A DNA stretch of 64,000 nt from Candidatus Latescibacterota bacterium (lineage in GTDB: Bacteria > Latescibacterota > UBA2968 > UBA8231): the NCBI GenBank assembly GCA_964291625.2, contig OZ220089.1, forward strand, positions 4,384,001 to 4,448,000, written 5' to 3'. The position numbers were made by a program, and so were the translations under genes. This document shows, piece by piece, positions 30,099 through 64,000 of the stretch; position 1 is the first letter of the stretch, and each line of letters opens with the position of its first letter. The notes beneath the pieces were generated by a model. The model saw nothing but the letters and a program-made list of their open reading frames with translations. It ran no database searches and was not told the origin of the DNA.

Positions 30099-30890
30099 TC
30101 AGTCGCGGGCCGTGAGCTCCACGGTGCCGTCGGTGTAGAGGCGGCCCACGTCACGCACGAACTCGTAGACGATGTCGACGCTCTCGACCGGCTCGTTGCG
30201 GTAGTCGAAGCGCAGGTTGACGTCGTGGACGATCACCTTCATGCCGTCCACGTCCGGATGAAGGGCAGGGAAGACGACGAAGCCCCCGACCTCCTGGCCG
30301 CTGAAGATGTTCTCGGAGGGGAACATCGTGTTGAGCAGCAGATCCTGGCGCGCCCGGAAGCGCGAGTACTCGTTGCCCCGGTAGCCGATGGCGTAGGCGC
30401 GGTAGTAGCCCTCGAGCTGCTTGAAGCGGAGGCTCCAGTAGGTGCGGCCGTTGGAGGCGGCCAGCTCGATCCGCGTCGGGTCGAGCCTCACCTTGGGGAA
30501 GGCGTAGTTCTTGACGCCGAGGCTGAAGACGGTGAAGCGCTGGCGGGTTTCCCGGCCCTCGTAGAACTCCTGGTCGCCGAAGGTGTAGGGGTTGGTCGAC
30601 CGGGGGCCCGAGGTCGACAGGGCGGAGAACTGGCGGTTCAGCTCGTCATCGGTCAGCGGCCGCAGCCGCACCTCGAGACGGCCCTGGACGTAGGTCACCC
30701 CTCCGTCGTCGGCGACCGCCATGGCGGGGCCCTGGTCTTCGACGGGCCGCAGGGGTCCGGCGTAATGGTGATAGCCGCCGCCACAGGCGGACAGGAGCCC
30801 CAAGGCGAGAATCAGGGCCACCCCCACCAGGGGGGTCCCCGGGCGCGGGGGATGGGTCAGGGGTCGAAGGCGGACGGTCTCGGGCGGCAT
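30099..30890 (-). CDS. Lipoprotein of unknown function (paralog of 54425-55204)
   Basis: Lipobox LSAC; STNPYTFGD, FTVF, KVRLDP and YYRA..GNE motifs shared with the paralog. Confidence 0.75.
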   Translation of the reverse strand: MPPETVRLRPLTHPPRPGTPLVGVALILALGLLSACGGGYHHYAGPLRPVEDQGPAMAVADDGGVTYVQGRLEVRLRPLTDDELNRQFSALSTSGPRSTNPYTFGDQEFYEGRETRQRFTVFSLGVKNYAFPKVRLDPTRIELAASNGRTYWSLRFKQLEGYYRAYAIGYRGNEYSRFRARQDLLLNTMFPSENIFSGQEVGGFVVFPALHPDVDGMKVIVHDVNLRFDYRNEPVESVDIVYEFVRDVGRLYTDGTVELTARD

Positions 30891-30939
30891 GGCAGGTCTC
30901 CGGCGTTGGGACCGACGGTAGGAGAAGTGGCTTTCCCTG

Positions 30940-32616
30940 TCAACGGGAATGGCCGGCGCCCGGTTGCCTCACGGCCAGGTACTGGTTCGGCGGGACGGCC
31001 GTCAGGGTCTGGGCGGAGCCGCCCGGCCAGTGGACGGTCACGCTGTCGACCCGGGCCGCCTCCCCCAGGCCGAAGTGAAGGCGCGGGTCCTCGCTGCTGA
31101 GGAAGCTGCTGCCGCGCACGCTCTGACGCACCTGCCGCCGGCCGCCGGCGGCGACGACGACGCGGGCGCCGACCCCCTCGTGGTTGCAGCGCACCCCCTC
31201 CAGGCGCAGACCGAGCCAGTTGCCGCCCGGCGCGTCGTTGCGGTAGAGGGCGGGACGGTCGTCCAGGTTGGCCACGAAGAGGTCCAGGTCTCCGTCGTCG
31301 TCGAAGTCGACGACCGCCGCTCCCCGGCTCACCCGGGGCGGTCCGAAGGGATCCGACCCCTGGTCGAGGACCCGCTCGAAGCGGCCGGCGACGTTCTCGA
31401 AGAGATGGTCGGCCTGGGCGTACGCCGAGTTGGTGCCCGACGTATCGATCTGGGGATAGACGTGGCCGTTGGCGACGAAGATATCGAGATCGGCGTCGCG
31501 GTCGAAGTCGAGGAAGGCGGCCCCGAAGCCGACGAAGGGGAGACCGGCCTGGGCCAGGCCGGCGGCGAAGCTGACGTCCTCGAAACTGCCGTCGCCGCGG
31601 TTCCGGTAGAGGGTGTTGTAGTCGTCGTCGAAGTTGGTCACCAGCAGGTCGGGGGATCCGTCGCCGTCGAAGTCCCCGGCGGCCACGCCCATCCCGGCCT
31701 GGGCATTGCCCATGGCGCCGTGGCTCGCGCGGGCGGTCAGCCCCGCCTCGGAGAACCGGTCCCCGGAGTCGTTGCGGAACAGGAAGTTGGGAGACGAGTC
31801 GTTGGCCACGTAGAGATCGGCATCGCCGTCGACGTCGAGGTCCGCGAAGAGAACGCCGAGCCCGTAACCCGGGGCCACGTCGCTCACGCCGGAGGGAGCG
31901 CTCACGTCGGTGAACCGGTCGCCCTCGTTGCGGTAGAGCCGATCGGGGAGCGGGCGCAGGCCCAGGGGGCCGATGAAGGCGGGCACGCCCTTCCAGCGCG
32001 TGCCCAGGTGGGCGACGCTGTCCGCGTGGAGGTCCACGTAGTTGGCTACGTAGAGGTCCAGGTCCCCGTCCAGGTCGTAGTCGCCGGCCGCGGCTCCCGT
32101 GCTCCAGAGAGGCAGGTCCACTCCGGCCTGCGTGCCGAGCTCGGTGAAGCGCCCCCTGTCGTTGAGGAAGAGGAGGTTCCTCGTCAGGCAGGAGACGTAG
32201 AGGTCGGGGTCGCCGTCATTGTCGAAGTCGGCGGCCAGGGCCCCCATGCCCCAGCCGCGGCCCTCGACCCCGGAGGAGGCAGCCACGTCCTGGAAACCTC
32301 GATCGCCGTCATTGCGGTAGAGGGCGTTCCCCGCCCCCAGGGAGTCGTCGAGCGTCGCTCCGTTCACCCAGTAGAGATCGAGGTCGCCGTCCCCCTCGGC
32401 GTCGAGGACCGCCAAGCCGCCGCCCTTGGCCTCGACGATGTACCCCTTCTCGGGGGTGCCGCCCCTGTGGGCCCGGTGCAATCCCGCCTCGGCCGCCACG
32501 TCGACGAACAGGCGGCCCCGGTCCGCCCGCTGAGCCGGGGGTGGGTCGGCGCAGGAAGACAGCAGAAGGAGGAGGGCTCCGAAGGGCAAGCAAAAACCCC
32601 CGGGCGCCTGGTTCAT
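30940..32616 (-). CDS. CRTAC1-family lipoprotein (FG-GAP/VCBS repeats + ASPIC/UnbV)
   Basis: Repeated DxDxDGDxDL...LYRN; QAGMGV; C-terminal GARV...RLHFGLG...VHWP; lipobox LSSC. Confidence 0.9.
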   Translation of the reverse strand: MNQAPGGFCLPFGALLLLLSSCADPPPAQRADRGRLFVDVAAEAGLHRAHRGGTPEKGYIVEAKGGGLAVLDAEGDGDLDLYWVNGATLDDSLGAGNALYRNDGDRGFQDVAASSGVEGRGWGMGALAADFDNDGDPDLYVSCLTRNLLFLNDRGRFTELGTQAGVDLPLWSTGAAAGDYDLDGDLDLYVANYVDLHADSVAHLGTRWKGVPAFIGPLGLRPLPDRLYRNEGDRFTDVSAPSGVSDVAPGYGLGVLFADLDVDGDADLYVANDSSPNFLFRNDSGDRFSEAGLTARASHGAMGNAQAGMGVAAGDFDGDGSPDLLVTNFDDDYNTLYRNRGDGSFEDVSFAAGLAQAGLPFVGFGAAFLDFDRDADLDIFVANGHVYPQIDTSGTNSAYAQADHLFENVAGRFERVLDQGSDPFGPPRVSRGAAVVDFDDDGDLDLFVANLDDRPALYRNDAPGGNWLGLRLEGVRCNHEGVGARVVVAAGGRRQVRQSVRGSSFLSSEDPRLHFGLGEAARVDSVTVHWPGGSAQTLTAVPPNQYLAVRQPGAGHSR

Positions 32617-32669
32617 GCGCCCGGGGGAGGAGGCAACGCCGCTACAGCTGCGGCGGGGACAGGGTCGGA

Positions 32670-33560
32670 TCAGCGTGCGGCCTTGATCTGGCCCCAGGAA
32701 ACGTCCTCGACGGCGGTCAGGGCGGCGATGGAGGGTTCCACCTGGGCCATGACGACGTCGTTGGTGGCGGTGCAGCAGCTCTCGGGCGACATCGTCCAGA
32801 ACCCCTGATAGCTCTCCAGGGAGCACTCGGTGCAAGGCTCGTCGAAGTCGCCGACCGTCACGGAGAGGTGGATGACCTCCTCCTCCTCGAGGTCGTGGAC
32901 GACCACGCTGCTCTCGTCGACGTCGTCACCCCTCGGCATGCTCAGAATGGGGGTGATGGCCAGCTCGTAGTAGTAGGTGCTCTCGCCGAACTGGTCGCCA
33001 TCGAAACCCCAGCCGAAGTCGATCCAGTCGGAGCCGTCGACGAACCAGGGGATGGCCTGGTTGGGACGGAAGAACTGGTAGGCGCCCTCAACCGGCGGCA
33101 CGGCCCACTTGTAGCTGAAGTTGTTGGCCGGCTGTTCTGCCTGGTTGTGCTCCTCCGTCGGCGTGTGGTCGGGGTTGACCTCGACCTCCCAGGCGTCGTC
33201 CGACCAGAAGGCCGAAGGGTCCTCGCGGTCCAGATTGTGGACGTTGTCGAACACCGAGGTGGCGAAGTAGAGCTTGTTGAGGTTGTCGTTCCAACCGATG
33301 ATGTTGCGGATGTTGATGTCGCTGGCGTCGATCTCGCCGCGGCCCACGGGCTGGATGTCGGCCACCGGGGAGTAGAGCCGGTCGTTGCCGATCCAGTAGG
33401 GGCCGTCGATGGGAACGATATCCCAGTCGGAGAGATCGCCGTCCATCTGCGGCACCAGGTTGTCGGGGAACTGGGCGGCGAAGAACAGCTCCCCGGGCGG
33501 ATTGTGGGCGCTGGCGGAGACCGCGACGACCAGCGACGCACAGAGGATGATGCGCTTCAT
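32670..33560 (-). CDS. Secreted acidic CBM9/DOMON-like protein with C-terminal AVExxSWGxIK tail
   Basis: Signal peptide; MDGDLSDW, GWNDNLNKLYF, DDAWEV and YELAI motifs; ends TAVEDVSWGQIKAAR. Confidence 0.7.
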   Translation of the reverse strand: MKRIILCASLVVAVSASAHNPPGELFFAAQFPDNLVPQMDGDLSDWDIVPIDGPYWIGNDRLYSPVADIQPVGRGEIDASDINIRNIIGWNDNLNKLYFATSVFDNVHNLDREDPSAFWSDDAWEVEVNPDHTPTEEHNQAEQPANNFSYKWAVPPVEGAYQFFRPNQAIPWFVDGSDWIDFGWGFDGDQFGESTYYYELAITPILSMPRGDDVDESSVVVHDLEEEEVIHLSVTVGDFDEPCTECSLESYQGFWTMSPESCCTATNDVVMAQVEPSIAALTAVEDVSWGQIKAAR

Positions 33561-33636
33561 GCGAGGTCCTCCTGAGTCAGGAATGCGGCTGGAATAGCCG
33601 GTTGGGGGGATGGATCTCCTAATACAGAGGATTTGA

Positions 33637-33665
33637 AAAGTGCAAAAAAGCCAGGGAGAAGTCAA
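33637..33665 (-). promoter_or_regulatory. Putative sigma70 promoter for 32670-33560
   Basis: Minus strand TTGACT-N17-CACTTT in the most AT-rich intergenic stretch seen. Confidence 0.45.
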
Positions 33666-33693: not shown

Positions 33694-35844
33694 TCAGTAC
33701 ACCACCGAAACCACCCCGACGCGGCGCACCGTCTCCTCGGTGCTGAGGGAGACTTCGTAGAGGTAGGTCCCCGGCGGTACCAAGTCGCCGGCGCCGTCCC
33801 TGCCGTTCCAGCTCTGGCTGCTGCGGCCGCTGGCGCCCGACCTGGGTTCCTGGACGTGGACGAGACGCCCTCCCAGATCGTAGATGCGCAGGTGGACGGG
33901 ACGCTGAACGGTCAGCTGGCGAAGCTCGTAGGTCAGGACGAGCTCGTCGTTGAGACCGTCCCCGTTGGGGGTGATGGTCTGACTGGAGGCGTTCAGATCG
34001 CCGATGAGACCGCCCTTCAGCGGTGTGGCCACGGCCAGCACGTTGCTGCCGAACCGGAAGGTCGCGTTGCCCGGGCGCACCTGCTGGCGGATCCGGTCCG
34101 GGTCATCGCTGTGGAAGACCCAGCCGCGGAACTCGGCCCCGTAACGCAGGACCGGCACCTCGAAGGTCGCCTCGATCGGCTTCAGCCGGTCGGAGCGGCC
34201 CTTGAGCTCGTCGAAGGAAAAGATGAGGCGATCCTCCCGCAGGTCGGGTGGATGCAGGTCGAAGTCGACCGGGCCCCCGTCCACGGTGAGGGAGAGGCGC
34301 TCCGGATCGACGCGATTGTGGGTCAGGATCTCCAGGCGGTTGAAGCCGAGATCCGCGTCGTCGAAGTCGGGACGCACCACGTAGGTGAAGGGCGTGGCGT
34401 CGAAGGAGGTCACCTCGGTCGGCCAGATCTCGCCCAGAACCTCTCTGGCCAGGGGAGACTCGCTGAACTGGAGCCACACCTGATCGATGCGGGAAGCCCG
34501 GGTGAAGGTGCTGAAGAGCTGGATGTCGATCTGCAGGTAGCGGCTCGGGCCAGGCGACAGGAGGGAGGTACCGTCCCCCCAGCTCTCGGCCGGGACAGTG
34601 GAGTCTCGCAGGCCCGCCTCGAAGGAGTACGGAGGCGACCAGAAGCTCCAGTTGTCCAGGTCTGGCCGGGGATCGAGGCGGCCCGTGGCGTCGATGGCCA
34701 GGTACTCCTCGGTGGAGATCCGGCGGATGTCGCCGTTGACGCTCTCGGCGACGTAGAAGTTGGGGTCCGGGGTCTGCCCGGTGCGCGTGCGGATCTCGAC
34801 GCGCGTGCCCTCGGGGGCCTCGCCGCTCCAGCGGATCTTGCCCCAGTTCACCCGGCCGCCCGACTCGGCGCCGAAGTCGAGGATCTGCGTCCGGTAGGAG
34901 GCGTGCTCCACGAAGCCCTCGCCGAAGACCTGGAACTCCGCCACCTCCCAGTTGCGCAGGGGGAAGGTCTTGAAGGTCAGGTAGCGCACCGACCGGGTGG
35001 GAAAGTTCAGGTCGACGATGCGCTCGAGGTTCTCGGGCTTGGACTCCAGGATCTCGAGGCGGTCGTCGGTGGTCCGGACCCAGCGCAGACCCTGGGAGAA
35101 GCCGACGTGGTCGCAGGGGCTGCTGGCGAAGCTCTGGCTGTCGTCGGCCACGCGGATCTCGTAGCCCTCGACGAAGTTGGCGGCGAAGCTGCTCTCGCCG
35201 AACTCCTCGAGGGGGGGGCTCGGCTCCTGCATCTCCTCGATCAGCAGCCGGTCCTCCACGCGGCTCAGTCGCGGGAAGAACCGGATCCGGTTGACGGGCA
35301 CGGCGGCGCCGAAGTCGAGGACCACGGCGTTCTTCCATCCCGAGCCGGTGACCCCGGCGACGATGCGGCCGCCGCCCGCGAAGATGCTCGTGCCGGGGGT
35401 GAACCGGCGGAAGTGGGCGGTCGTGAAGTCTCCGTCGAACTGCTTCTTCACGATCCGGACCTCGTTGTCGATGGCCCCGCAACCGTCCGTGGTCAAGGCG
35501 ATCCCCCGGGTGGTGGGGAGGGGGATCCGGATGTCGGGAGAGTCGGGGTCGGTGAGGGCCAGGTTCTGGTCGGATCGCACGAACAGCGGCAGGATGCTGC
35601 CCGGGGAGGCCTCGTACTCGATGACGCTGTCGCCGCCCTCGCCCCAGGGCGTGGTCGGCACCGCGTCGCGGCGCACGAGGGTGCCCTCCTCGTCGAAGAC
35701 CACGAACTCGCCGGCGTCCTCCTCGGAGAGGGCCGCCGGCCAGGGATTGCCGTCGGGACCGCCCAGCACGTATTCCGTGCGAGCCGACACGGAGGCCGCG
35801 CCGAGGGCAAGGCAGAGAATGACGCAACAGGCTGAGGAGCGCAT
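33694..35844 (-). CDS. Secreted discoidin-like protein with C-terminal FlgD-Ig/PNGD domain (paralog A)
   Basis: Signal peptide from ATG 35844; VLDFGAAVPVNRIRFFPR, IRTRTG, ITPNGDGLND, IYDLGGRLV and WNGRD...VPPGTYLY motifs. Confidence 0.8.
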   Translation of the reverse strand: MRSSACCVILCLALGAASVSARTEYVLGGPDGNPWPAALSEEDAGEFVVFDEEGTLVRRDAVPTTPWGEGGDSVIEYEASPGSILPLFVRSDQNLALTDPDSPDIRIPLPTTRGIALTTDGCGAIDNEVRIVKKQFDGDFTTAHFRRFTPGTSIFAGGGRIVAGVTGSGWKNAVVLDFGAAVPVNRIRFFPRLSRVEDRLLIEEMQEPSPPLEEFGESSFAANFVEGYEIRVADDSQSFASSPCDHVGFSQGLRWVRTTDDRLEILESKPENLERIVDLNFPTRSVRYLTFKTFPLRNWEVAEFQVFGEGFVEHASYRTQILDFGAESGGRVNWGKIRWSGEAPEGTRVEIRTRTGQTPDPNFYVAESVNGDIRRISTEEYLAIDATGRLDPRPDLDNWSFWSPPYSFEAGLRDSTVPAESWGDGTSLLSPGPSRYLQIDIQLFSTFTRASRIDQVWLQFSESPLAREVLGEIWPTEVTSFDATPFTYVVRPDFDDADLGFNRLEILTHNRVDPERLSLTVDGGPVDFDLHPPDLREDRLIFSFDELKGRSDRLKPIEATFEVPVLRYGAEFRGWVFHSDDPDRIRQQVRPGNATFRFGSNVLAVATPLKGGLIGDLNASSQTITPNGDGLNDELVLTYELRQLTVQRPVHLRIYDLGGRLVHVQEPRSGASGRSSQSWNGRDGAGDLVPPGTYLYEVSLSTEETVRRVGVVSVVY

Positions 35845-35976: not shown

Positions 35977-38064
35977 ATGAATCGCGGATTCACCCTCATC
36001 GCTGCGGCGGTCCTGGCCGGCCTCGGCTGGCCGCGGATCTCCCCGGCCGCGGATACCGTCGCCATCGGTGCCGGCGGCGAGCTCGACTGGACGGGAGGGG
36101 GCTCTGCCGTGGTCGCCACGATCCCGGCCCGCCACCGCTCCCTGCTCGACTCCGACAACCTCCTCGAGGGCAACGCCCCGGGCGCCCTGCTCGAGTTCGA
36201 GAGCCAGGACCACCCCGGGGCCATCCTCCCGTTGCGCATCGCCCCCGGGCAGAACGTCGCCCACGGCACCCTCGAACGCGGCGGCGAGATCGTCGCGCCC
36301 AACGTCTTCGACTTCAGCGGCACCTTCAAGCCCCTCGACCTCAAGCAGTCGCTGGAGGAGCTGATCACCCCGGGAGGCGAGCTGGAGGCTTTCGAGCGCA
36401 AGGATCTGAACTCCCTGGGTATCTTGGTGATCCTCAACCTGGGGGGCCGCTTCGGAGTCGAGAGGATCCGGTTCTACCCCCGCAATACCGTTCAGGTCGC
36501 GCCGGCGACGCCTTTCCAGAACGACTTCCTGCGCTCCTTCGAGCTGTTCACCAACGACGGCATCGTCCTCTCCCAGGCGGGCCTGCCGATCTGGGGAGAG
36601 CCGGTGGCCTCCGAGGAGGAGAACAAGGAGGCCGTGGTCGACGTGCTCCTCGACCCTCCGCGGTACGTCCAGCACATCCGCCTGCGATCCACCTCGACCA
36701 TTTCCTACGAGATCGACGAGTTCGAGGTCTTCGGCACCGGCTTCCTGGCCACCGCCACCTATGTCTCCGACATCTTCGACGCGGGACAGCCGGCCGTGTG
36801 GCACCAGCTGCGCTGGACCGAGCGAATCCTGGGAGACCCCCGGTTCTCGGCGGTCCACATCCGGACCCGCACCGGCACCGACGCCGACCCCTTCGTCTTC
36901 ACGCGGGTCCTGCACGGGCAGGCCGACCCGGAGGAGATCCCCCTGTCGGTTGAGGATCCGTCCCGCGAGCTGAGCCTGGAGGAGTACGGGAAGCTGCCCG
37001 TCTTCGATGGCCTGGGCCGGCAGTGGAACGCCGGCCCCGTAAAGGACGATCTCGTCAACTGGAGCCCATTCAGCACGCCCTTCGACGCCGAGGTGGCCAA
37101 CACCCCGGGAGCGCTGATCACGTCCCCGAGCCCGCGGCGCTACCTGCAGCTGCAGATCGCCTTCGACAGCAGCGACCTGGAGGCGGCGAGGGTGATCGAG
37201 TCGCTGAGCTTCGACGTGCTGCGGTCGCCGCTGGCCGACTCCCTCACGGCGGAGGTCTTCCCGAGGGAGGTGGAGGAGATCCGGGCCGTGCCCTTCACCC
37301 TCGCCGTGAGGGCCCGGTTCGAGTCGGACGACCTGCTGGGATTCGACCGTCTGGAGATCCAGACGCCCCTGCGGGTCACGTCGATCGACGAGGTGGAGGT
37401 CCTCGACGGCCAGGGACAGCCGGTGGCCGGCAGGACGTTCTCGAGCCTGGCCGACACCCTCGACGAGGGCGGCTTCCGGATCGTGGAGGTGAGGGAGGAT
37501 CTCTTCGAGGTCGGCTTTCCCCGGATCGAGGAGGACGGGACCGAGGTCCGAGTCCGCTTCCACAGCGACGTGCTCACCTACAGCACGGACTTCACGGGCT
37601 CGGCCAAGCTGTCGCCCGCGGACGGGGTAGGCGAGCCTGCCATCCAGCCCCTGGTGGGCGGCGACACGGGCCAGCTGGCCCCGGGGGACGAGGCGGCCCT
37701 GTCGGGGACCACGGTCCTGAGCCCGACCCTGCTGGGGGGGCGGCTCCTCGGGCAGGTGGAGCTGGCGCCCAATCCCTTCAGCCCCAACGGCGACGGCGTC
37801 AACGACGCCATGTCCCTGACCTACAGCCTGCTGTCCCTGGAGTCGCCGCGCCAGGTGGAGCTGAAGGTCTACGATCTGGGCGGCCGGCTGCTGAGGGTCA
37901 TCAGCCAGGGGCTGGAGATCAACGGCCGCTACGAGGAGAAGGCCTGGGACGGCACCGACGACGCGGGACGGCTCGTCCCGCCGGGGCTCTACCTGGTCCG
38001 GATCGCCGTCGATGGCGACCACCGGGACGACGAGGTGCACCGGGTCGTCAGCGTGGTCTATTAG
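35977..38064 (+). CDS. Secreted discoidin-like protein with C-terminal FlgD-Ig/PNGD domain (paralog B)
   Basis: Signal peptide; LNLGGRFGVERIRFYPR, IRTRTG, PNPFSPNGDGVND and WDGTD...VPPGLYLV motifs. Confidence 0.8.
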   Translation: MNRGFTLIAAAVLAGLGWPRISPAADTVAIGAGGELDWTGGGSAVVATIPARHRSLLDSDNLLEGNAPGALLEFESQDHPGAILPLRIAPGQNVAHGTLERGGEIVAPNVFDFSGTFKPLDLKQSLEELITPGGELEAFERKDLNSLGILVILNLGGRFGVERIRFYPRNTVQVAPATPFQNDFLRSFELFTNDGIVLSQAGLPIWGEPVASEEENKEAVVDVLLDPPRYVQHIRLRSTSTISYEIDEFEVFGTGFLATATYVSDIFDAGQPAVWHQLRWTERILGDPRFSAVHIRTRTGTDADPFVFTRVLHGQADPEEIPLSVEDPSRELSLEEYGKLPVFDGLGRQWNAGPVKDDLVNWSPFSTPFDAEVANTPGALITSPSPRRYLQLQIAFDSSDLEAARVIESLSFDVLRSPLADSLTAEVFPREVEEIRAVPFTLAVRARFESDDLLGFDRLEIQTPLRVTSIDEVEVLDGQGQPVAGRTFSSLADTLDEGGFRIVEVREDLFEVGFPRIEEDGTEVRVRFHSDVLTYSTDFTGSAKLSPADGVGEPAIQPLVGGDTGQLAPGDEAALSGTTVLSPTLLGGRLLGQVELAPNPFSPNGDGVNDAMSLTYSLLSLESPRQVELKVYDLGGRLLRVISQGLEINGRYEEKAWDGTDDAGRLVPPGLYLVRIAVDGDHRDDEVHRVVSVVY

Positions 38065-43035: not shown

Positions 43036-43087
43036 CCTTGAAGGCACGGGTTTCTCCTCGAGGGTTTCGGCTTCCTGGGCGCCGGCT

Positions 43088-52704: not shown

Positions 52705-52722
52705 GGTCCGCGCGCCGGGAGC

Positions 52723-55204: not shown

Positions 55205-55218
55205 GGCCACCCTCTCTC

Positions 55219-56451: not shown

Positions 56452-56494
56452 GCTCACCACCTTGATGCGGGGTCGCCAGGATCATCCCCCGATT

Positions 56495-56881
56495 TCACTC
56501 CTGGACCACCAGGGTGTCGGCCTCGGACCGGGGGCCGAAGAAGCCTTGGGCATCGAAGGCCCACACCTGGACCAGGTACGAGAGGCCCGGACTGACGTCG
56601 AGCTCCTGATCGGAGTGGGCCCTCGCCGCCGGATCCTCCACGGACCGGGTGTGCTCGGCGCCGCTGGAGTCGGTGAAGCCGACGACGAAGCCCTGCACGT
56701 TGGCCTCGGATGCGATGGCCCAGGAGACGTGGATGGCGCCGTCCTCCACGGATGCGGCTACGTCGGAGGGCCTCGGCAGGAGGCCTTCGTGGTAGGCCGT
56801 GGGCAACTCGATGTCGTCGCTGCACCCCCAGGCGAGGATAGCGCCCGCCAGGGCGATGCACACACCCGCTCGCTTCAACAT
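56495..56881 (-). CDS. Small fibronectin type III-like lipoprotein
   Basis: Lipobox AWGC; PSDVAA...IHVSW...PGLSYLVQVWAFD...GPRS. Confidence 0.7.
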   Translation of the reverse strand: MLKRAGVCIALAGAILAWGCSDDIELPTAYHEGLLPRPSDVAASVEDGAIHVSWAIASEANVQGFVVGFTDSSGAEHTRSVEDPAARAHSDQELDVSPGLSYLVQVWAFDAQGFFGPRSEADTLVVQE

Positions 56882-56906
56882 GAGGACTCCCTTCTCCCTT
56901 CCGGCA

Positions 56907-57464
56907 TCAGAAGCGGGTCACCAGGGCCAGGCCCGTCCGCTCCGGAGTGGCCGTCGGCACCAGCCCGACGCGCCCGCCGCCGGGCGGCTCCAGCCCCCCG
57001 AGGAGCAGGGCATCCACGAGGTTGTATCCGTAGACGCCGATGGCGACAACCCCGAAGAGCCGCCGCCGCAGATGGGATCCGTCGGCATCCTCCCTGAGCT
57101 GGTTCAGGCGCTGCCAGCTTTCCTCCGCCCCCTCGTAGGTCCCGCCCTCGCGGATCGACAGGTAGAGCGCCTTCTCCACGTCGATCTGCTCGGACTGGGT
57201 CTTGTAGTCGGCGTGCGATGTCAGCCAGACCACGAGGCCGAGGATCTCGGCGGCCACGAGAGCCGTGCCCTTCCCGCGGTGCCCCGTGGCAAGGTGACCG
57301 AGACCCGGAAAGGCCACGGCGAGGGCGACGGCCTGGTTTCTGGAGGCGTATTGCTCGCGTACCTGGAACCTCTCTTCCGGAGTCTGGCCCGGGGCCAGGT
57401 CGGCGGTCATCAGGGTCCCGGCGAGGACCAGCAGCAAGAGACGGCGGTAATCTATCGAAACCAT
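56907..57464 (-). CDS. DUF5683-like envelope protein
   Basis: AVALAVAFPGLGHL..G...KG and YGYNLVDA motifs; C-terminal Phe. Confidence 0.6.
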   Translation of the reverse strand: MVSIDYRRLLLLVLAGTLMTADLAPGQTPEERFQVREQYASRNQAVALAVAFPGLGHLATGHRGKGTALVAAEILGLVVWLTSHADYKTQSEQIDVEKALYLSIREGGTYEGAEESWQRLNQLREDADGSHLRRRLFGVVAIGVYGYNLVDALLLGGLEPPGGGRVGLVPTATPERTGLALVTRF

Positions 57465-57488
57465 GGGGACCTCACGAATTGGAGTTGC

Positions 57489-60400
57489 TCACAGCCGCGC
57501 GCTCACGATCCAGTCCCGGTGGGCCTTGGCGAACTGGAAGGCGTCCCGGGTGGCTCGCTCCTCCTCGAACATGCCGATGACCCGGTCGTAGGCCCCGACG
57601 GCGTCCTGCCACCTTCCGAGTTCCTCCAGGCAGACGCCCATGTTGCTCAGGGCGCCGATCTCGCTCTCCGTGCCCGGGTACCTGGCGATGACGTCCTGGA
57701 ACACCTCGATCGCCTGCCGGTAGTACTCGCTCTGTCCGCCGGCATCGGCCGAGTCCATCAGGGCGATCCCCTGCTCGTAACGCTCGTAGGCGATCGCCTC
57801 CTTGAGCTCGGCCACGAGCCGGGGCACCTCCGATGTGATCTCGGCGGAGGGATAGCGCTGCTGGACGAGGAGGTAGGCCTCCATGGCCTCCTGGTAGCGG
57901 CCGAGGTTGTAGGCGTGGTCCCCGAAGGTGAACTGGGCCGAGGCGGCGTACTCGCTGCCGGGGAAGCGGTCGAGAAGCCGGCGGAAGCTGGCCATGGCCT
58001 CATCCTGCCTGTCCAGCTCGATGAGGCACCAGGCCATGTTGTACTGGGAATCGTCGGCCGTCGTCTCTTCCGGGAACTCGTCGATGAGCCGCCTGTAGTG
58101 TCCGATGGCCTGGTCGAAGTCGCCGAGCTGGTAGTTGCTCTCGGCCACGCCGAAGAGGATGTCCGGCAGCTCGCGGGCCTCCGGATGGCCGGCCAGGAGC
58201 TGCTGGAAGAGGGTGCGGGCCTCCTCGAACTCCCTCAGGCTGTAGTGGGTGTTGGCCAGGTAGAAGGAGACGAGGAGGGCCTGCTCCCGGGTCATGTCGG
58301 CCCCCGAGAGGTCCTGGAAGAGGGCCTTGGCCTCGTCGAGCTCTCCCTCGGCGAAGTGGAAGGCGCCCAGGGTCAGGCGGATGTCCAGGGCGAAGGGCGA
58401 GGTCGGATGGACGCGCAGGGCCTCGCGGAAGGTGCGCACCGCTTCGGAGCCGCGGTTGAGCCGCATGAGGGCGTCCCCGAGGAGGAAGTAGGCCTTCTCC
58501 TTGGTGCCGTAACCTCCGCGGGCGACGGCGGTGTCGTCGAAGTCGAGGGCGATGAGGCGCCTGGCGGCCGCGATCGTCTGGGGGTAGCTCTCCTCCTCGT
58601 AGTAGAGGTCGAGCATGCGGTTCAGCAGGTCGGCGCGCTGCTCAGCCGTGGGGGCGGCGGCTACCATCTCCTCGAGGATCCGGACCGCGTCCGTCCCCCG
58701 GTCCCGCCTCACGTAGGAGAAGGCGAGGGCGTCCTGGGCGTAGCGCACCTTTTCGGGATCGGCCACGTTGGCCACCACCCACAGGAGGTCCTCCTCCCCT
58801 TGGGCGAGGTCCCCGGCGGCCAGGGCCGCGCTGCCCCGGTTGAGGCGGAGGGCCTCCACCAGCCGAGGGGCCGCGGGCCTGGCGAGGGCCTCGGTGAAGT
58901 GGGTGACCGCCCGGGCGTGCTCGCCCTCGCCGTTGTAGGCCTGTCCGAGCAGGTAGTGGAGGCTGCCCTGCTGAGCCGGGTCCTCGGCCGGGGCCAGTCC
59001 CGCCAGGAGCACGGGGATCGCCTCGGCGTAGCGCCGCTGGGCGAGCAGGACGTGGCCGGCGCCGGTCCGGCTGCGGACGAAGAAGGGGGAGTCCGGGGCG
59101 ACCTGGAGGAAGGCCTCGGCCGCCGGTTCCAGTTGCTCGGAGGCCTGGTGGGCCAGACCGATGCGCATGTGCGCCTCGTCGGCGAAGTCGGTCTCGGGGA
59201 ACTGGCTGAGGAGCTGCCGGCTGCGCTCCACCGCCCCCCCGAAGTCGCCGAAGTCGAAGAGCAGTTCGGCGAGCTGTCCGAGGGACCGCTGCACGTAGAG
59301 CTCGTCGCCGGCGTCACCGATGATCGCCTCGAACTCGCCGCGGGCTCTCGCCATGGCCTCCGGCGTGCCAAGGGCCTGGAAGGCGACGGCGCGGTTGAAC
59401 TGCGAGTCGAGGAAGTAGGGGGAACCCGGATCCGCGCACAGGGTGTCGTACTGGGCGATGGCGAGGTTCAGCCACGAGGCCGCCGCCGGCGCGTCTCCCG
59501 ACTGCAGGTGCGGCTGGGCCAGCTGCTGGTAGCCGCTGCCCACGCGGTAGCGCACCCGGCCCTCGCCGAAGCCGGCGCTCCGGGCGATGTCGCCGTACCC
59601 CTGCAGGTAGATGCGGTACTCCTGGATCGCCCGCTCGTAGTCCCCCTGGCCGAAGAGGCGCTCGGCGAGGGCGTACTGGATCCTCGCCCTCAGGGTGCGG
59701 TCCTGGGACTCGTCGATGGCCTCGCGGTAGGTGCGCAGGGCCGCCGCCTCGTCGCCACGGGCCTGGTGCAGGTCGGCCATGCGCAGGTAGGCTTCCTCCA
59801 CCAGTTGGCGCTCGGTGCTGAAGAGGGAGATCACGCGCTGGTAGGCCGCCAATCCTTCGTCGAAGCGGCCGAGGCTCGTGAAGCAGGTGCCCACCCGGAT
59901 CTCCGCCTTGGCCGCCAGCTCCAGGGCGGTTTCGTCCACGAGGCCGGCGAGCTTCTCGCGCTTCATCTGCAGCAGCTCTTCGTCGGTCAGCTCCCCGATG
60001 CGCTGGCGCTCCACGAGGCGGCGGTAGGCCTCGATCGCCTCCTCGAACTCCCCCCGCTCGCGGTGGCACTCGCCGATCTGGAAGAGGCTGCGGTCGGCGC
60101 GGTAGCCGCTGGTGAACCGGGACAACAGGGCCTGGAAGGACTCGATGGCGCGGGCGAACCGCCTGGTTTCGTAGTAGGCCCATCCGGTGTTGTAGTAGGC
60201 GACGATGACGTGGGGGTCACCGGGGTGGGCGGCGATCATCTCGCGGGAAGCGATGATGACGTCCGGATAGGCCTCGGCGCTGAAATGGAGATCGATGAGG
60301 CGGCCGTGGGCCTGCACCGTGAGGACCTCGTTGCCGCCGCTGGCGATGACCCGGCGGAAGGCGGCGACGGCCCGGTCGAAGGAGGTGTCCGCCAGGGCGC

Positions 60401-60737
60401 GGTACTCGGCCCTTCGGGCGGCGTTGCGCGCTTCTTCCGCGAACCGGTCGTACTCCTCGTAGAGCTTGGAGTAGGCGTTCCCGATCTGGTAGGCGGCGGC
60501 CTCCTGGAGGGGGAAGCTCTCCTCGCCAACGACCACCTGCACCTGGTCCACGGCCAGCACCCGGCTGCGCACGCGGGAGACGTCGGTGTACTCGTCGATG
60601 GCCTGGTCGTAGGCGCCCTCCGCGTAGAACCGCTGGGCCTCCTGGAAGGAGCTGACCAGCTCGCCCTCGGTGGGAGTGCGGGTGGCCAGGTAGGTGCCGG
60701 CGGCGGCCAGCAGACTGAGGAACAGGGTCAGGCCCAT
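57489..60737 (-). CDS. Large (1082 aa) TPR protein, BamD/YbgF-type repeats
   Basis: N-terminal hydrophobic signal/anchor; many A..F..LL..FP.S..A..A TPR pairs throughout. Confidence 0.88.
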   Translation of the reverse strand: MGLTLFLSLLAAAGTYLATRTPTEGELVSSFQEAQRFYAEGAYDQAIDEYTDVSRVRSRVLAVDQVQVVVGEESFPLQEAAAYQIGNAYSKLYEEYDRFAEEARNAARRAEYRALADTSFDRAVAAFRRVIASGGNEVLTVQAHGRLIDLHFSAEAYPDVIIASREMIAAHPGDPHVIVAYYNTGWAYYETRRFARAIESFQALLSRFTSGYRADRSLFQIGECHRERGEFEEAIEAYRRLVERQRIGELTDEELLQMKREKLAGLVDETALELAAKAEIRVGTCFTSLGRFDEGLAAYQRVISLFSTERQLVEEAYLRMADLHQARGDEAAALRTYREAIDESQDRTLRARIQYALAERLFGQGDYERAIQEYRIYLQGYGDIARSAGFGEGRVRYRVGSGYQQLAQPHLQSGDAPAAASWLNLAIAQYDTLCADPGSPYFLDSQFNRAVAFQALGTPEAMARARGEFEAIIGDAGDELYVQRSLGQLAELLFDFGDFGGAVERSRQLLSQFPETDFADEAHMRIGLAHQASEQLEPAAEAFLQVAPDSPFFVRSRTGAGHVLLAQRRYAEAIPVLLAGLAPAEDPAQQGSLHYLLGQAYNGEGEHARAVTHFTEALARPAAPRLVEALRLNRGSAALAAGDLAQGEEDLLWVVANVADPEKVRYAQDALAFSYVRRDRGTDAVRILEEMVAAAPTAEQRADLLNRMLDLYYEEESYPQTIAAARRLIALDFDDTAVARGGYGTKEKAYFLLGDALMRLNRGSEAVRTFREALRVHPTSPFALDIRLTLGAFHFAEGELDEAKALFQDLSGADMTREQALLVSFYLANTHYSLREFEEARTLFQQLLAGHPEARELPDILFGVAESNYQLGDFDQAIGHYRRLIDEFPEETTADDSQYNMAWCLIELDRQDEAMASFRRLLDRFPGSEYAASAQFTFGDHAYNLGRYQEAMEAYLLVQQRYPSAEITSEVPRLVAELKEAIAYERYEQGIALMDSADAGGQSEYYRQAIEVFQDVIARYPGTESEIGALSNMGVCLEELGRWQDAVGAYDRVIGMFEEERATRDAFQFAKAHRDWIVSARL

Positions 60738-60739
60738 CC

Positions 60740-63700
60740 TTAGTAGGTCTCCTCCTCGAAGCCGAGGATCACGTTGATGAAGACCGCCGTGAACTTCTCG
60801 TCCTTGACCTGTGCCACCGCCGGCTCGTCGAAGACCCGGTTCCTGCGGCTGAGGCCGGCGTTGGTGGAGAGGATGTAGCCGAAGTACTTGGAGTTGTTCG
60901 TCAGCATGAGCACGTAGTCATACTGCTCGAAGTCGTTCTCGGGCTGCGCCAGGTCGACCACCGAGTAGGGCAGGAGGCTGCCCAGGCCCTCCACCCCGAA
61001 CTGAAGGCGGGTCCTCAGGGTAAGGTCGTAGTTGAGCTTGAGGATGGGGATGATATGGCGCTCGTGCTGCGTGGTCACATCTCCCGTCTGCCACTCCCGC
61101 AGGAAGCGGTACTTGAGCCCCGAGAACAGGCTGAGCTTGGGCCGGATCGGCCACAGGTAGTCCAGCCGGTGCACCATGGCCCACCTCGACAGGGTCCGGC
61201 CCTCCTGCAGGGTACCGTCGTAGAGCTCTCCGTCGTGCTGCTGGTTGATCTCGTACTTGACCTTGTTGTGGAGGTTGAGGCCGGGAAGGGTCGTCCAGCG
61301 CGCGTCGACGAAGAAACGCGAGTAGGTGCTGTTCTTGAACAGCAGGGGATCCTCCCGCGGCACCTCGAGGAAGGGGGAGATGCGGATGTTGCGCTGGAAT
61401 CCGCCGAACTCCCGCCGGAGTTGCTCCGCCGCCGTCAGGACCTCGTCGCTGTAGACGCTGAGGGGATCCTCGACGCCGTCCCGTACGCGCTCGGTGAACA
61501 AGGCGCCCTTGAAGCGGCCCAGGCTCGGGATCCGGCGCTCGTAACCGAGTCGGGCGTACAGCGACTCGTTCGGGTCGCCGGCGGCGATCTGCTCGGCGTC
61601 GAGCAGGCCCAGGGTCATCTGCGCGCCGGTAATCGGCTTGAAGGTCCCGTAGACGTGCCGCCCCCGCAGCCCCGGGTCGTAGGGCAGATCCGGCTGCAGG
61701 TCGTTCTCTCTCGCGTCGATATAGTCGTTGTGGTTGAGGTCCGCACCGTAGTCGAAGATCTGCGGGTCCACGTCGTAGGTCAGGAAGGGCTCGAGGTAGT
61801 CCGGCGTGGCGTCGAAGTCCCGGTTGGTGTCCGGCACCCCGTCGTTGTCCTCGTCGAGGCCGGGGAAGACGCCGTCCAGGTCCGACTGGCCGTTCCAGAT
61901 GAAGGGCCGGTTGGTGTACCACGTGTCCGGGTAGCGGTCGTTGTCGTCGTTGTCCTCCACCAGCCGGTGCAGGTAGGTGTTGTTGTAGACCACGGGGTTG
62001 CCGAAGTTGACCTCGCTCCGGCCGATGTGGGAGCGCAGCTCGGTGTTGAAGTGGGCCCCCATGGAGAACACCTCTCCGCCCACGCCGAACCTCCGGAAGT
62101 CGCGCTTGACGGTCAGGTAGTACGCGTTGTCGTCGATGCTGGAGTGCGCCCCCGGGTTCTCCTCCCGGCGCAGGGCGTTCACCGTCTGCCCGCCGTCGGA
62201 GGGGTAGACCCGCGGTCCCGGGATCCCGCTGGCGTACTGGTAATAGCTGTTGCTGCGGCTGAACTCCCCGTCGATCTCGAAGCCCTTGAAGACGCCGTAC
62301 ACGTTGGCGCTGTAGAGGCTCAGTCCGGTGGACGCCCCCACCTTCACGCGCACCTTCTCGATGTTGTCGCTGCGCGAGTTCCCCGGCGCCGAGGCGACGG
62401 TGCGGAAGAAGCTGGCGTAGTTGTAGCGCTCCCGCGGGTTCATGAAGAACAGGTCATCCGGCTTGCCGGCCAGATCGATCTCCGAGACCTCCACGTGGTA
62501 ATCCCGGGACAGCTCCAGGTCGATGTCGACGGAGTTGATCTGCTCCTGGAAGGGCTCCAGATCGACGTAGAGGATGGCGTACTCCTCGCCGTCGAAGGCT
62601 TGTGGCAGGTCGGACTCGGTGATCAGGGCAAAAGCGCCGTCGGGCTCTGCGAGCTCGTGAGCGAACTGGTTGTGGACCGTAACGCCTTCCTCGTACTCGT
62701 GGTCCGGGCCGTAGCGCGCGAAGTCCCGGAAGTAGAGGTGGTCGATGAAGTAGGGATGCTCATAGCCCCGGTAGTAGGCGTCGGTGTCGAAGGCGGCGTA
62801 GTTGATGTACACGGCGAAGCTGTTGAAGACCGCCCCCTTGTTGATCGTCTGGTAGTCGGGCTCCAGGGGCCTGCGGCGCTCGTTGTCCTTGCCTTCGTCG
62901 AGGAGGCCGGCCACGTACGTGGTCCGGCCGGCGCCGCGCTGGTTGAGACGGAGGACGAAGACGTCGGCCTCCGGACGCAGCTCGCCGTTGACGTAGACCT
63001 TGAAGCCGTGGAACACCGGACCGTCCCGGCCGTCCTGGGGCGAGCCGTCGGAGATGCGGACGGCCACCATCGCCGTGGGACGCTGGATGTTGCCCACCGA
63101 CCCCTTGAGGGACTGGTGGCGGTTCGACATCTGGTGCTCGAACTGATGGGCGTTGACGAAGCTGGTGCCGAAGTTGAGGAAGCCCACCTTGCGCTCGTAG
63201 TGGGCGCCCACCATGGTGGTGGGCACGATGAAGCCGCCGCCGGTGGGCGTCAGGTTGGAGAACAGGGCCGAGAACTTGTCGTGCTCGGTGCCCACGTCGA
63301 GGCGCAGGCCATCGACGTTGGACATCTTGAAGGTCAGGGGCGTGAACTTCGAGCGCAGCTCGTTGGCGTAGATCGCCCGGGCCTGCCAGGAGTCGGTGCC
63401 GTCGGAGCCGACCATGACATAGTTGAAGAGGTTGGCGAAGCTGCCGCCGGGGGGCGCGTAGTCGGTGCCGCCCCGGCCGGTCCCGTGGGATCCGCCCTCG
63501 CTGACGGAGCTGTAGCCCCGGGAGGTGCCCAGGCCCCGTGACTCGACCCAGCGGATCGACTGGGTGCCGTAGACCAGGGGGTCCCCAAGGAGGTTGTAGC
63601 GGTGGCTCAGGTTGCTGGTGGCCACCGGGCGCCGGGAGTAGTCCTCGAACCCGTAGTTCCGGTAGTCCTGCCGGCCGATGCGGCCGATGAAGGGCTGGTC

Positions 63701-63817
63701 CGGCAGGATGCGCACCGGGCCCAGGGCCGGGTGTTCGGGCCGGTCTTCCTCCTCCTCCTGGGCCGTCACCGGAAGGGAGACCAGCAGCATCAGGCCGAAG
63801 ATCAGCCACAACCTCAT
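60740..63817 (-). CDS. Large secreted/outer-membrane protein with Asp-rich core (paralog Y)
   Basis: Signal peptide from ATG 63817; LVEDNDDNDRYPD...VFPGLDEDND...PDYLEPFL...DLNHN...ENDLQPDLPY, matching paralog X. Confidence 0.7.
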   Translation of the reverse strand: MRLWLIFGLMLLVSLPVTAQEEEEDRPEHPALGPVRILPDQPFIGRIGRQDYRNYGFEDYSRRPVATSNLSHRYNLLGDPLVYGTQSIRWVESRGLGTSRGYSSVSEGGSHGTGRGGTDYAPPGGSFANLFNYVMVGSDGTDSWQARAIYANELRSKFTPLTFKMSNVDGLRLDVGTEHDKFSALFSNLTPTGGGFIVPTTMVGAHYERKVGFLNFGTSFVNAHQFEHQMSNRHQSLKGSVGNIQRPTAMVAVRISDGSPQDGRDGPVFHGFKVYVNGELRPEADVFVLRLNQRGAGRTTYVAGLLDEGKDNERRRPLEPDYQTINKGAVFNSFAVYINYAAFDTDAYYRGYEHPYFIDHLYFRDFARYGPDHEYEEGVTVHNQFAHELAEPDGAFALITESDLPQAFDGEEYAILYVDLEPFQEQINSVDIDLELSRDYHVEVSEIDLAGKPDDLFFMNPRERYNYASFFRTVASAPGNSRSDNIEKVRVKVGASTGLSLYSANVYGVFKGFEIDGEFSRSNSYYQYASGIPGPRVYPSDGGQTVNALRREENPGAHSSIDDNAYYLTVKRDFRRFGVGGEVFSMGAHFNTELRSHIGRSEVNFGNPVVYNNTYLHRLVEDNDDNDRYPDTWYTNRPFIWNGQSDLDGVFPGLDEDNDGVPDTNRDFDATPDYLEPFLTYDVDPQIFDYGADLNHNDYIDARENDLQPDLPYDPGLRGRHVYGTFKPITGAQMTLGLLDAEQIAAGDPNESLYARLGYERRIPSLGRFKGALFTERVRDGVEDPLSVYSDEVLTAAEQLRREFGGFQRNIRISPFLEVPREDPLLFKNSTYSRFFVDARWTTLPGLNLHNKVKYEINQQHDGELYDGTLQEGRTLSRWAMVHRLDYLWPIRPKLSLFSGLKYRFLREWQTGDVTTQHERHIIPILKLNYDLTLRTRLQFGVEGLGSLLPYSVVDLAQPENDFEQYDYVLMLTNNSKYFGYILSTNAGLSRRNRVFDEPAVAQVKDEKFTAVFINVILGFEEETY

Positions 63818-63902
63818 GCCGGCCTCCTCGGCCTGACGCCGGCCTCGGACCGCGCGGCGGCGCTCCCATCTGCCCGCCATGTCGGTGATCGCTCTCATGG
63901 GA

Positions 63903-64000
63903 TCAGAACTGGGGCCTCAGGCCGACGATGACGCGCAGGAAGAGACGGGAGAGATCGATGTCCTGATCGCCGCGGGTCTCGTCCAGGAAGGTCCGGAGGC
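63903..64000 (-). CDS. C-terminus of an upstream gene, probably a third paralog of the X/Y family (partial)
   Basis: Hand translation LRTFLDETRGDQDIDLSRLFLRVIVGLRPQF*, resembling the X/Y termini (SIFISAYAG, AVFINVILG). Not in the ORF track. Confidence 0.5.
   Translation of the reverse strand, partial: LRTFLDETRGDQDIDLSRLFLRVIVGLRPQF

Follow-up and report, generated by a model that had tools for sequence, protein, structure and literature searches.

Two adjacent cell-envelope gene modules, one with its own ExbB/ExbD genes, recur in many Latescibacterota families

INTRODUCTION

What does a long run of cell-envelope genes do when it carries an ExbB/ExbD-type motor of its own but no recognizable TonB? 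We addressed this question for a 64,000-nt stretch of DNA (here, the window; C1:4384001-4448000) from Candidatus Latescibacterota bacterium, an uncultured sponge-associated bacterium with a 5.9-Mb genome (69.5% G+C) in two contigs (C1 and C2). A preliminary description of this DNA had proposed a single motor-driven trans-envelope machine, encoded together with its probable cargo and serving secretion, surface display, or motility rather than nutrient uptake. We found that the region consists of a pair of neighboring modules for the cell envelope, both stereotyped and present in multiple copies across many Latescibacterota families. Coordinates without a prefix refer to the window.

RESULTS

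Two modules that recur separately

Genes were called by G+C frame analysis at third codon positions (GC3) together with open reading frame (ORF) calling, and domains were assigned by Pfam and NCBIfam searches. The calls bore out that genes follow one another on the minus strand without a break from 38086 up to the end of the window. The series continues through four further genes past the window (+10.7 kb), with intergenic distances of −122 to +165 nt. The run splits at 51712/51878 into module A (51878 to beyond 64000) and module B (30099-51712). We place the boundary there because A and B each recur separately elsewhere in the genome; the single machine proposed for 64000 to 38086 is thus replaced by two stereotyped modules, each repeated elsewhere.

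In transcription order, module A encodes tail656, tail723, OM898, OM937, OM1025, TPR1082, a DUF5683-like protein, p128, a DUF4159 protein, p259, p338, ExbB, ExbD1, and ExbD2, that is, two surface proteins with type IX secretion system (T9SS) tails, three paralogous predicted barrels, a large tetratricopeptide repeat (TPR) protein, DUF5683, three lipoproteins, a motor, and a candidate transducer. Module B comprises the barrel paralogue OM945, a SurA-like lipoprotein, p263, p331, FG-GAP/ASPIC, TPR, and GT-C proteins, tail695 and tail716, and tail1016; it contains no motor genes.

Module A is present in at least five copies in its own genome, the window copy included. Further copies lie at C2:41731-66526 (with a motor 71 to 73% identical to that of the window), C1:8181-31012, and C1:345903-372785, and a partial copy (the C-terminal part of the TPR protein, DUF4159, and a p259 homologue with an AgmX domain) lies at the start of C2 (C2:296-4186; L096). 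Contig C2 begins within this module A locus, and the assembly break therefore falls in the repeated gene set. The copy at C2:41731-66526 has a DUF4340 protein (L094:17908-19251; C2:58908-60251) between its ExbD2 and TPR genes, which the window copy lacks. Module B recurs at least six more times. Around the 12 loci that hold the 26 barrel ORFs of the genome, 130 of the 215 called ORFs belong to the stereotyped module families.

Species-representative genomes were searched with a four-sequence alignment, which yielded 516 tblastn-confirmed relatives, and the best 80 loci were examined. These best 80 of the 516 came nearly all from Candidatus Latescibacterota, with a few labeled as Gemmatimonad or Myxococcales metagenome-assembled genomes. 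In the tblastn layouts, the order of module A recurred in orthologous loci (51 to 95% identity) and, permuted, in paralogous loci (about 30%). A strict tally covered 79 loci with 10-kb flanks, some of them on contigs that end early: the barrel trio was present in order at 36, with tail723 in front in 34 of these, and the other 43 were single barrels. Among the 36 trio loci, 28 had TPR1082, 27 had DUF4159, 24 had DUF5683, 21 had p259, and 11 had all three motor genes. Of 168 genomes from the phylum, 106 had the barrel family (f1, 75/75; f5 to f13, 30/31), with none from four families among them (f2, 0/31; f3, 0/3; f4, 0/22; f14, 0/5). The p259 family occurred in 104 of the 168, and its positive families and its four negative ones were those of the barrels. 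Because these genomes are related, the counts are not independent. Relatives had up to 85 first-look barrel candidates per genome. The preliminary description had said that its proposal would fail if relatives lacked conserved co-occurrence; the co-occurrence proved to be strong.

Contigs from the RNA libraries of two sponge studies and one marine study matched window positions 44001-64000 at 95 to 99% identity, and those of library X1 covered 30 of 30 bins of this interval; no meaning is attached to stretches left uncovered by X2, X3, and X6. Single contigs bridge ExbD2/ExbD1/ExbB, ExbD1/ExbB/p338, p338/p259/DUF4159, and TPR1082/OM1025; such contigs show neither strand, ends, nor a single transcript, and DNA carry-over is possible.

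An additional motor and a candidate transducer

The motor genes, like all genes of module A, are on the minus strand. They encode an ExbB/TolQ-type proton channel subunit (52723..53466; PF01618, 99 bits) and two ExbD/TolR-type subunits, ExbD1 (52291..52704; PF02472, 94 bits) and ExbD2 (51878..52288; PF02472, 107 bits). This ExbB is 73% identical to its paralogue on C2 and 31 to 33% identical to the other ExbB genes of the genome. The two ExbD proteins share 33% identity, and the Asp of the membrane helix is invariant in both (D23 in the ExbD1 alignment, within PLIDCVF, and D20 in the ExbD2 alignment). The best NCBIfam matches were TolQ (86.7 bits; cut-off, 221) and TolR (61.6 and 58.9 bits; cut-off, 127).

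Neither TonB_C nor Plug was found among the 28 Pfam-scanned proteins of the run and its continuation, in agreement with the preliminary description, and NF033768 (the AgmX domain model) was not found in the scanned window proteins. The only strong TonB_C match of the genome is a canonical gene at C1:4131840-4132070, beside another ExbD and ExbB (C1:4131840-4133995), and none of the 24 Plug-domain receptors comes within 50 kb of a barrel locus. Since a canonical TonB-ExbBD set and receptors are encoded elsewhere, the motor of module A is an extra one, distinct from the housekeeping Ton system as had been claimed.

The candidate force transducer is the DUF4159 protein (55219..56460; PF13709, 105 bits), which has a single strong membrane helix (residues 34 to 52). 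Its AlphaFold2 model consists of a helix (19 to 51), a disordered stretch (54 to 179; a linker of about 125 aa), and an alpha/beta head (180 to 412), a predicted three-part layout like that of TolA and TonB. In an alignment of 31 orthologues and paralogues, an RFxAPSD motif, predicted to be cytoplasmic, is conserved, as is a basic stretch directly after the helix (AP.PA..RLIIRKPR.TK.F..K.QR..PRAMTK). The head resembled PDB entry 4i66, an uncharacterized protein (E 2.5e-13; TM 0.80), and weakly ThuA/flavodoxin-like folds; there was no vWA entry among the 50 fold matches listed. Genes for DUF4159 adjoin ExbB/ExbD in three different arrangements within the genome. When the DUF4159 linker (53 to 145) was submitted to complex prediction together with the periplasmic portions of the two ExbD proteins, the score was 0.04 against a mark of 0.32, which speaks neither for nor against contact.

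Lipoproteins, a TonB-like domain, and the TPR protein

The p259 lipoprotein (54425..55204) matched nothing in Pfam or NCBIfam. Its homologues in paralogous loci are longer (377 to 467 aa) and carry an extra C-terminal domain, identified in five of five tested as NF033768 (AgmX/PglI, also present in the GltG tail; 50 to 64 bits; cut-off, 40). Pfam TonB_C reached only E 0.014 to 0.027 on these long homologues, and the GltG model scored 30 to 45 bits against a cut-off of 650. Exactly three AgmX/GltG-type domains are present in the genome, each on a p259-family ORF of a module A locus. The window p259 and that of the copy at C2:41-66 kb lack the domain; both of these copies carry p338, DUF5683, and an adjacent motor instead.

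In one paralogous locus, an FGE-sulfatase ORF (of the GldK/GldJ-like fold family; C1:353681-354517, L092:8681-9514) lies directly downstream of p259-AgmX, in the place that p338 has in the window. At C1:8181-10604 (L097), DUF4159 and p259-AgmX share one 807- to 814-aa frame with a TGA inside the DUF4159 match; this copy is either frameshifted or decaying, or else misassembled.

The secreted p338 (53515..54531) had been called CsgG/FlgT-like. Language-model features place it near CsgG/LpoB/FlgT_C-like proteins (neighbor scores, 0.92 to 0.93), and the likeness has no counterpart among Pfam, NCBIfam, or PDB sequence matches. The longest-ORF starts of p338 (54425-54531) and of OM945 in module B (43088-43209) add Arg/Ser-rich N-terminal extensions that reach 107 and 122 nt, respectively, into the genes upstream. 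Both overlaps probably come from over-long start calls, with the true starts further downstream.

The 128-aa lipoprotein p128 (56495..56881) has a lipobox in its sequence and is syntenic in relatives; the FN3 domain attributed to it was not recovered, as no Pfam or NCBIfam model matched. The small DUF5683-like membrane protein (56907..57464) matched PF18935 below the cut-off (E 5.7e-5; 23.6 versus 26.7 bits). TPR1082 (1,082 aa; 57489..60737) has an N-terminal hydrophobic anchor or signal followed by CpoB(YbgF)-like and BamD-like repeats (TIGR02795 [CpoB], 210 bits, cut-off 90.1; TIGR03302 [BamD], 147 bits, cut-off 81.4); the PorW/SprE model gave 104 bits, under its cut-off of 250.

A large family of predicted barrels

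The three barrels of the trio (about 900 to 1,050 aa) are OM898 (L001:3718-6414, beyond the window), OM937 (L001:903-3716; its 3' end is at 63903..64000, and the gene extends about 2.7 kb past the window end), and OM1025 (60740..63817), which has a signal peptide. Together with OM945 of module B, they form four paralogues of 26 to 31% pairwise identity that share an Asp-rich block, DNDDxDxxPD and PGLDEDNDGVPD, which in OM1025 forms a Ca-binding-like insert. The N-terminus of the barrels is conserved as well (NYGxEGYRRY...YDLLGD). No Pfam or NCBIfam model matched the family. A profile of it detected 1,014 representative clusters among 1.84 billion proteins at E ≤0.001 and 312 at E ≤1e-30.

The "OM-like" label of the preliminary description is backed by one structure prediction, an AlphaFold2 model of OM1025, according to which these proteins are outer-membrane beta-barrels. 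The model (76 sequences) had a pLDDT of 79.5, a pTM of 0.83, and 29 strands of at least 8 residues. Its Asp-rich block was well predicted yet non-regular, its N-terminus was of low confidence, and no plug was recognizable in the model or by a Pfam Plug match. Fold searches with the model (Foldseek and a wide VIA search) returned generic barrels only, assigning no family and excluding none: the best Foldseek match was SlpA (TM 0.17), the top VIA Z score was 12.5 (small porins), and the longest alignments were to SlpA/SDBC (434 residues), SprA (411), and SusC (390). Nothing useful was obtained from PDB sequence searches with the barrel profile, p259, p338, or the DUF6785 protein described below.

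Tailed surface proteins as probable barrel partners

Ahead of the trio, tail656 (L001:8751-10721, beyond the window) matched TIGR04183, the T9SS type A C-terminal domain (28.1 bits; cut-off, 23), and tail723 (L001:6445-8616, beyond the window) gave weak F5/8C and CHU_C matches; a language-model neighbor search with tail723 returned only its own kind of cluster. The genome has 78 ORFs ending in a T9SS-type tail, 28 of which are near barrels and 50 of which are not. A tailed ORF occurs no more than 6 kb from each of the 12 barrel loci, compared with a random mean of 2.4 loci and a maximum of 8 (0 of 5,000 trials reached 12).

T9SS genes are encoded elsewhere in the genome: a 2,117-aa ORF matched SprA_N, two PorU genes scored over the cut-off (one of them 29 kb past the window), and a PorV-like gene adjoins the other PorU. 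The former PorU-type sortase belongs to a group of genes 23 to 32 kb past the window (L101:3727-13127; C1:4470727-4480130), where two T9SS-tailed proteins (one GSDH-like and one with a Reg_prop beta-propeller) and a UxuA-like gene come before it. No core parts (PorK/L/M/N, SprA, PorV, or PorU) were found in the window. Models for GldL, GldM (two models), and GldN had no match in the genome, with the controls silent as well, and the GldK model gave only weak FGE-sulfatase matches. The tailed proteins had been taken for the probable cargo of the machine. The reading that we prefer is that T9SS exports them and that they serve as constant partners to the barrels; they carry T9SS sorting domains and are fixed orthologous components in module A.

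Module B and the genes down to 30 kb

Module B begins with a SurA-like lipoprotein peptidylprolyl isomerase (PPIase; 50069..51712, minus strand, as are the following genes unless noted) with SurA_N and two rotamase domains; it has seven paralogues in the genome, and one lies within 6 kb of 10 of the 26 barrel ORFs. It is followed by the TPR lipoprotein TPR498 (48570..50066; 67.9 bits with the GltE model, under the cut-off of 225), a 772-aa protein with TPR and FG-GAP/ASPIC-UnbV domains (CRTAC1-like; 46255..48573), and the surface protein tail1016 (43088..46138), which combines F5/8C (discoidin) with a CHU_C/FlgD_ig T9SS-type tail. The fourth barrel paralogue, OM945 (40372..43209), was recognized by alignment with the other barrels and had no Pfam match; its module B-type subfamily has 12 copies in the genome (36 to 55% identity). 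The minus-strand run ends with a polytopic 753-aa protein (38086..40347; seven hydrophobic segments) that joins a weak PMT_2-like (GT-C) match (E 4e-4) to TPRs.

Below the run, the first gene is on the plus strand and encodes the T9SS-tailed protein tail695 (35977..38064; CHU_C). The minus strand then encodes tail716 (33694..35844; CHU_C, 38.9 bits, and FlgD_ig, 37.7 bits, with a cut-off of 27 each; TIGR04131, weak), p331 (32670..33665; weakly CBM9-like and recurring in module B loci), a 631-aa FG-GAP/ASPIC-UnbV protein (30940..32835), and the lipoprotein p263 (30099..30890), a paralogue of p259 (36% identity). The CHU_C scores of tail695 and tail716 were 27.0 to 38.9 bits (cut-off, 27). The paralogues that had been noticed down to 30 kb are thus tail695, tail716, the 631-aa protein, and p263. 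As for the other domain calls of the preliminary description, Pfam or NCBIfam matches agreed with those for TPR1082, DUF4159, ExbB, the two ExbD proteins, the PPIase, TPR498, the TPR-FG-GAP/ASPIC protein, and the FlgD tail; the DUF5683 and GT-C domains were also found, the former under its cut-off and the latter through the weak PMT_2 match.

The genes at 25284-30053 may also belong to module B because all are co-stranded with it. They encode a CBM9 protein (26698-27489), a flippase-like protein, and a pair of proteins that no Pfam model matched (27476-28888 and 28872-30053). Further away, positions 1-19771 encode MnhE, two enolase-superfamily dehydratases, a xylose-isomerase-like TIM barrel, a Laminin_G_3 protein, a Wzz/GNVR protein, and an 837-aa ORF without a Pfam match (7853-10366). 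The G+C content dips to 0.63 to 0.66 across 16001-26000, compared with about 0.70 elsewhere.

Sugar-acid catabolic genes are present on both flanks. About 13.5 kb past the window, the plus strand encodes a DUF6785/DUF6784 polytopic membrane protein (L001:13492-15840; about 780 aa; 11 hydrophobic segments). This family has 27 copies in the genome, and 8 of the 12 barrel loci have a copy no further than 15 kb away (random mean, 1.6; at least 8 in 1 of 5,000 trials); DUF6785 had no PDB relative and no mention in the literature searched. Matches to sulfatase, BNR, and GDSL were sporadic among 84 neighboring ORFs.

DISCUSSION

A probable motor-coupled envelope module, possibly for nutrient capture

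We consider it probable, at roughly three chances in four, that module A is a real, conserved, motor-coupled envelope module distinct from the canonical Ton system. Judging from family membership and the conserved Asp of the membrane helix, an ExbB pentamer with an ExbD1/ExbD2 heterodimer would turn proton flow into force. Synteny, layout, and conservation suggest that this force would pass to the inner-membrane-anchored DUF4159 protein and then, through the TPR1082 scaffold and the lipoproteins p259, p128, and p338, to an outer-membrane complex made of three different giant barrels bearing two T9SS-delivered surface proteins.

What the module would do with this force is a more tentative matter. 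Our favored proposal, to which we give somewhat less than even odds as a whole, is substrate-specific capture of macromolecular nutrients, probably glycans, followed by their energized passage through the barrels. Such a module would have a role like that of a polysaccharide utilization locus (PUL), with parts that are neither SusC/SusD nor TonB-dependent receptors. Pointing to uptake are the discoidin and CBM9-like domains, the expansion of the barrels, the DUF6785/6784 neighbors, and the sugar-acid genes on the flanks. There is also a precedent in Fibrobacter succinogenes, in which FSU_2400-2403 (ExbB, two ExbD, and TonB) and the neighboring TPR and OmpA genes are upregulated on cellulose, according to the extract of PMC6851124. 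The preliminary description had set nutrient uptake aside; the copy number, the lectin-like domains of the surface proteins, the polytopic neighbor, and the Fibrobacter precedent fit uptake at least as well.

Several points weigh against this proposal. Any contacts between module proteins are putative, and the RNA-library contigs that bridge gene borders have the limits given above. The recurring cluster families, as scanned with Pfam, include no glycoside hydrolase, peptidase, or classical permease, and their stereotyped content (130 of 215 ORFs) sets them apart from PULs, whose content varies. An importer with three barrels in each unit would be unusual, none of the barrels has a recognizable plug, and the genome already has 24 ordinary TonB-dependent receptors. 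On the side of the transducer, the p259 of the window lacks the AgmX domain, a regular-expression search of all cluster proteins found no SHLS-type membrane helix (the TonB/TolA motif), and the positively charged stretch after the DUF4159 helix could mean that the head faces the cytoplasm. The SurA-like PPIase and the GT-C enzyme of module B hint at protein biogenesis or secretion.

A bolder version, which we regard as unlikely, would make the module a third, as yet undescribed class of energized outer-membrane transporter, with a heteromeric set of three plug-less barrels of about 30 strands that are fed by T9SS-anchored lectin-like proteins and gated by ExbB-ExbD1-ExbD2 through the DUF4159 transducer and a lipoprotein-borne TonB-like domain. 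If this were true, the diverged copies would be the Latescibacterota counterpart of the SusC/SusD loci of Bacteroidota.

Alternative readings

The same parts could build an adhesin machine of the Agl-Glt or gliding type, in which the trio would hold the two T9SS-anchored surface proteins and the motor, by way of the transducer and the TPR proteins, would move them or put them under tension. Adhesion to host or particle surfaces, or movement over them, would result. We think this doubtful, although the analogy, already drawn in the preliminary description, has gained weight: the motor set of one TolQ-like and two TolR-like subunits corresponds to AglRQS, the large TPR proteins to GltD/E/C, and the barrel trio to GltA/B/H, and the AgmX/GltG domain exceeds its cut-off in the paralogous loci. 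The tailed proteins are fixed module components; p338 is CsgG/FlgT-like by language-model features only; and the C2 copy has a DUF4340 protein, a family that we take to be associated with GldG. On the other hand, a genome with at least five loci of type A and at least seven of type B has many for a motility engine, neither a cytoplasmic platform nor an FHA domain was seen, and the AgmX domain is on a lipoprotein rather than on a membrane-helix protein. The scores for GltE (67.9 and 54.2 versus 225 bits) and for the GltG equivalog are far under the cut-offs, and TPR matches are promiscuous. The extract of PMC3169522 describes an ancestral Glt core (AglRQS with GltD, E, G, and C) outside the myxobacteria, one Fibrobacteres member included, in several copies. 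The barrels here are unrelated in size to its GltA/B/H.

The module could also be an accessory of T9SS, with the barrels as cargo-specific acceptors or anchors for the adjacent tailed proteins, putatively like PorP/SprF with type B cargo, or with the ExbBD-DUF4159-lipoprotein set replacing an undetected PorKLMN core. This is improbable in our view. A tailed gene is close to every barrel locus, the tails match CHU_C, TIGR04131, and TIGR04183, SprA-, PorU- (two), and PorV-like genes are present, and a lipoprotein PPIase beside giant barrels presumably resembles the PPI of the SprA complex. The lack of GldL/M/N matches and the weak GldK matches would suit a replaced core, but the silent controls leave the Gld search uninformative on absence; moreover, barrels are near only 28 of the 78 tailed ORFs and not near the other 50, and a general engine has no need for many diverged copies. 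Envelope maintenance like that of Tol-Pal, in which the motor, transducer, CpoB-like TPR protein, and lipoproteins would tether the outer membrane and peptidoglycan where large barrel complexes sit, remodel them there, or aid the assembly of these complexes, seems quite improbable. It would accommodate the best motor matches (TolQ and TolR), the CpoB and BamD scores of TPR1082, the SurA-like chaperone next door, and the absence of TolB over the cut-off genome-wide (best, 124 versus 343 bits). It does not sit well with multicopy, diverged loci tied to tailed proteins and barrels, with the Pfam search that found no OmpA/Pal-like domain in the cluster, or with the absence of the module from four families of a phylum that still needs envelope upkeep. 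It is very improbable that there is no functional unit at all, that is, a spare ExbBD set for receptors elsewhere beside surface-protein genes by chance. Bacteria of the FCB superphylum often have spare ExbBD sets, and a canonical TonB exists in this genome; the gene order, however, is conserved down to about 30% identity, the phyletic profiles match, the gaps are of operon size, and RNA-library contigs bridge the gene borders.

Comparison with known systems

Few proton-motor systems are known to reach the outer membrane (Ton, Tol-Pal, Agl-Glt/Nfs, and the PorLM of T9SS). To these the motor-coupled module would add a DUF4159 head, a TonB-like domain on a lipoprotein, and a large uncurated barrel family (the 1,014 clusters). 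It is a dominant feature of these genomes, and RNA-library contigs of sponge and marine origin contain it. Knowing what it does would reveal how an uncultured but widespread phylum deals with its surface or its nutrition and would test the reach of the 5:2 motor-plus-transducer principle.

With canonical Ton, module A shares an ExbB/ExbD motor with the conserved membrane-helix Asp and multicopy large barrels; it differs in having two ExbD proteins and neither TonB_C nor Plug. With Tol-Pal it has in common the CpoB-type repeats, though in a 1,082-aa protein; neither a TolA-type SHLS helix nor an OmpA/Pal-like domain was found in the cluster, and no TolB scored over its cut-off in the genome. 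The likeness to T9SS is limited to cargo with sorting domains, as the core parts are absent from the locus. SusC/SusD PULs and PorP/SprF also pair a barrel with surface proteins in many diverged copies. They differ from the present loci, in which no SusC, SusD, PorP, or PUL enzyme model matched and which have stereotyped content with no enzyme in the recurring families.

The Agl-Glt/Nfs core, as presented in the extract of Luciano et al. (2011; PMC3169522), has one TolQ-like and two TolR-like subunits, large periplasmic TPR proteins, three barrels, and multiple copies in common with module A. Here, the AgmX/GltG domain is on a lipoprotein of the paralogous loci and absent from the window copy, the helix protein carries DUF4159 rather than TonB_C or FHA, the barrels of about 900 to 1,050 aa have no curated model, and the surface proteins are T9SS tailed. 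The closest printed parallel is the vWA transducers encoded downstream of TPR-tolQ-tolR-tolR (Williams-Jones et al. 2025; PMC12204202), which, in the part of that paper available, follow the same gene logic: a TPR protein, a TolQ-like subunit, two heterologous TolR-like subunits, and a helix-linker-head protein. Our module differs in its DUF4159 head (4i66/ThuA/flavodoxin-like), in a helix without SHLS or His, in the giant barrels and T9SS-tailed proteins of the same locus, and in belonging to another phylum. The cluster FSU_2396-2403 of Fibrobacter succinogenes (Raut et al. 2019; PMC6851124), described in the extract as OmpA, two TPR proteins, ExbB, two ExbD, and a TonB-family protein, is likewise from the FCB superphylum and sets TPR, ExbB, and two ExbD genes beside outer-membrane proteins with a link to T9SS-displayed surface proteins and polymer use; the partners are likened by description only, and TonB-family and OmpA proteins stand there where module A has DUF4159 and giant barrels.

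No published account of the module was found in the main texts of the papers searched, and the Latescibacteria paper PMC4454575 describes, in its extract, a canonical TonB system only. Systems that join a 5:2 proton motor to a transducer spanning the periplasm are of a known kind; this version is not in the literature searched. Its new features are a head of the DUF4159 type, an AgmX domain borne by a lipoprotein, the uncurated barrel trio, the T9SS-tailed partners, and the dozens of copies.

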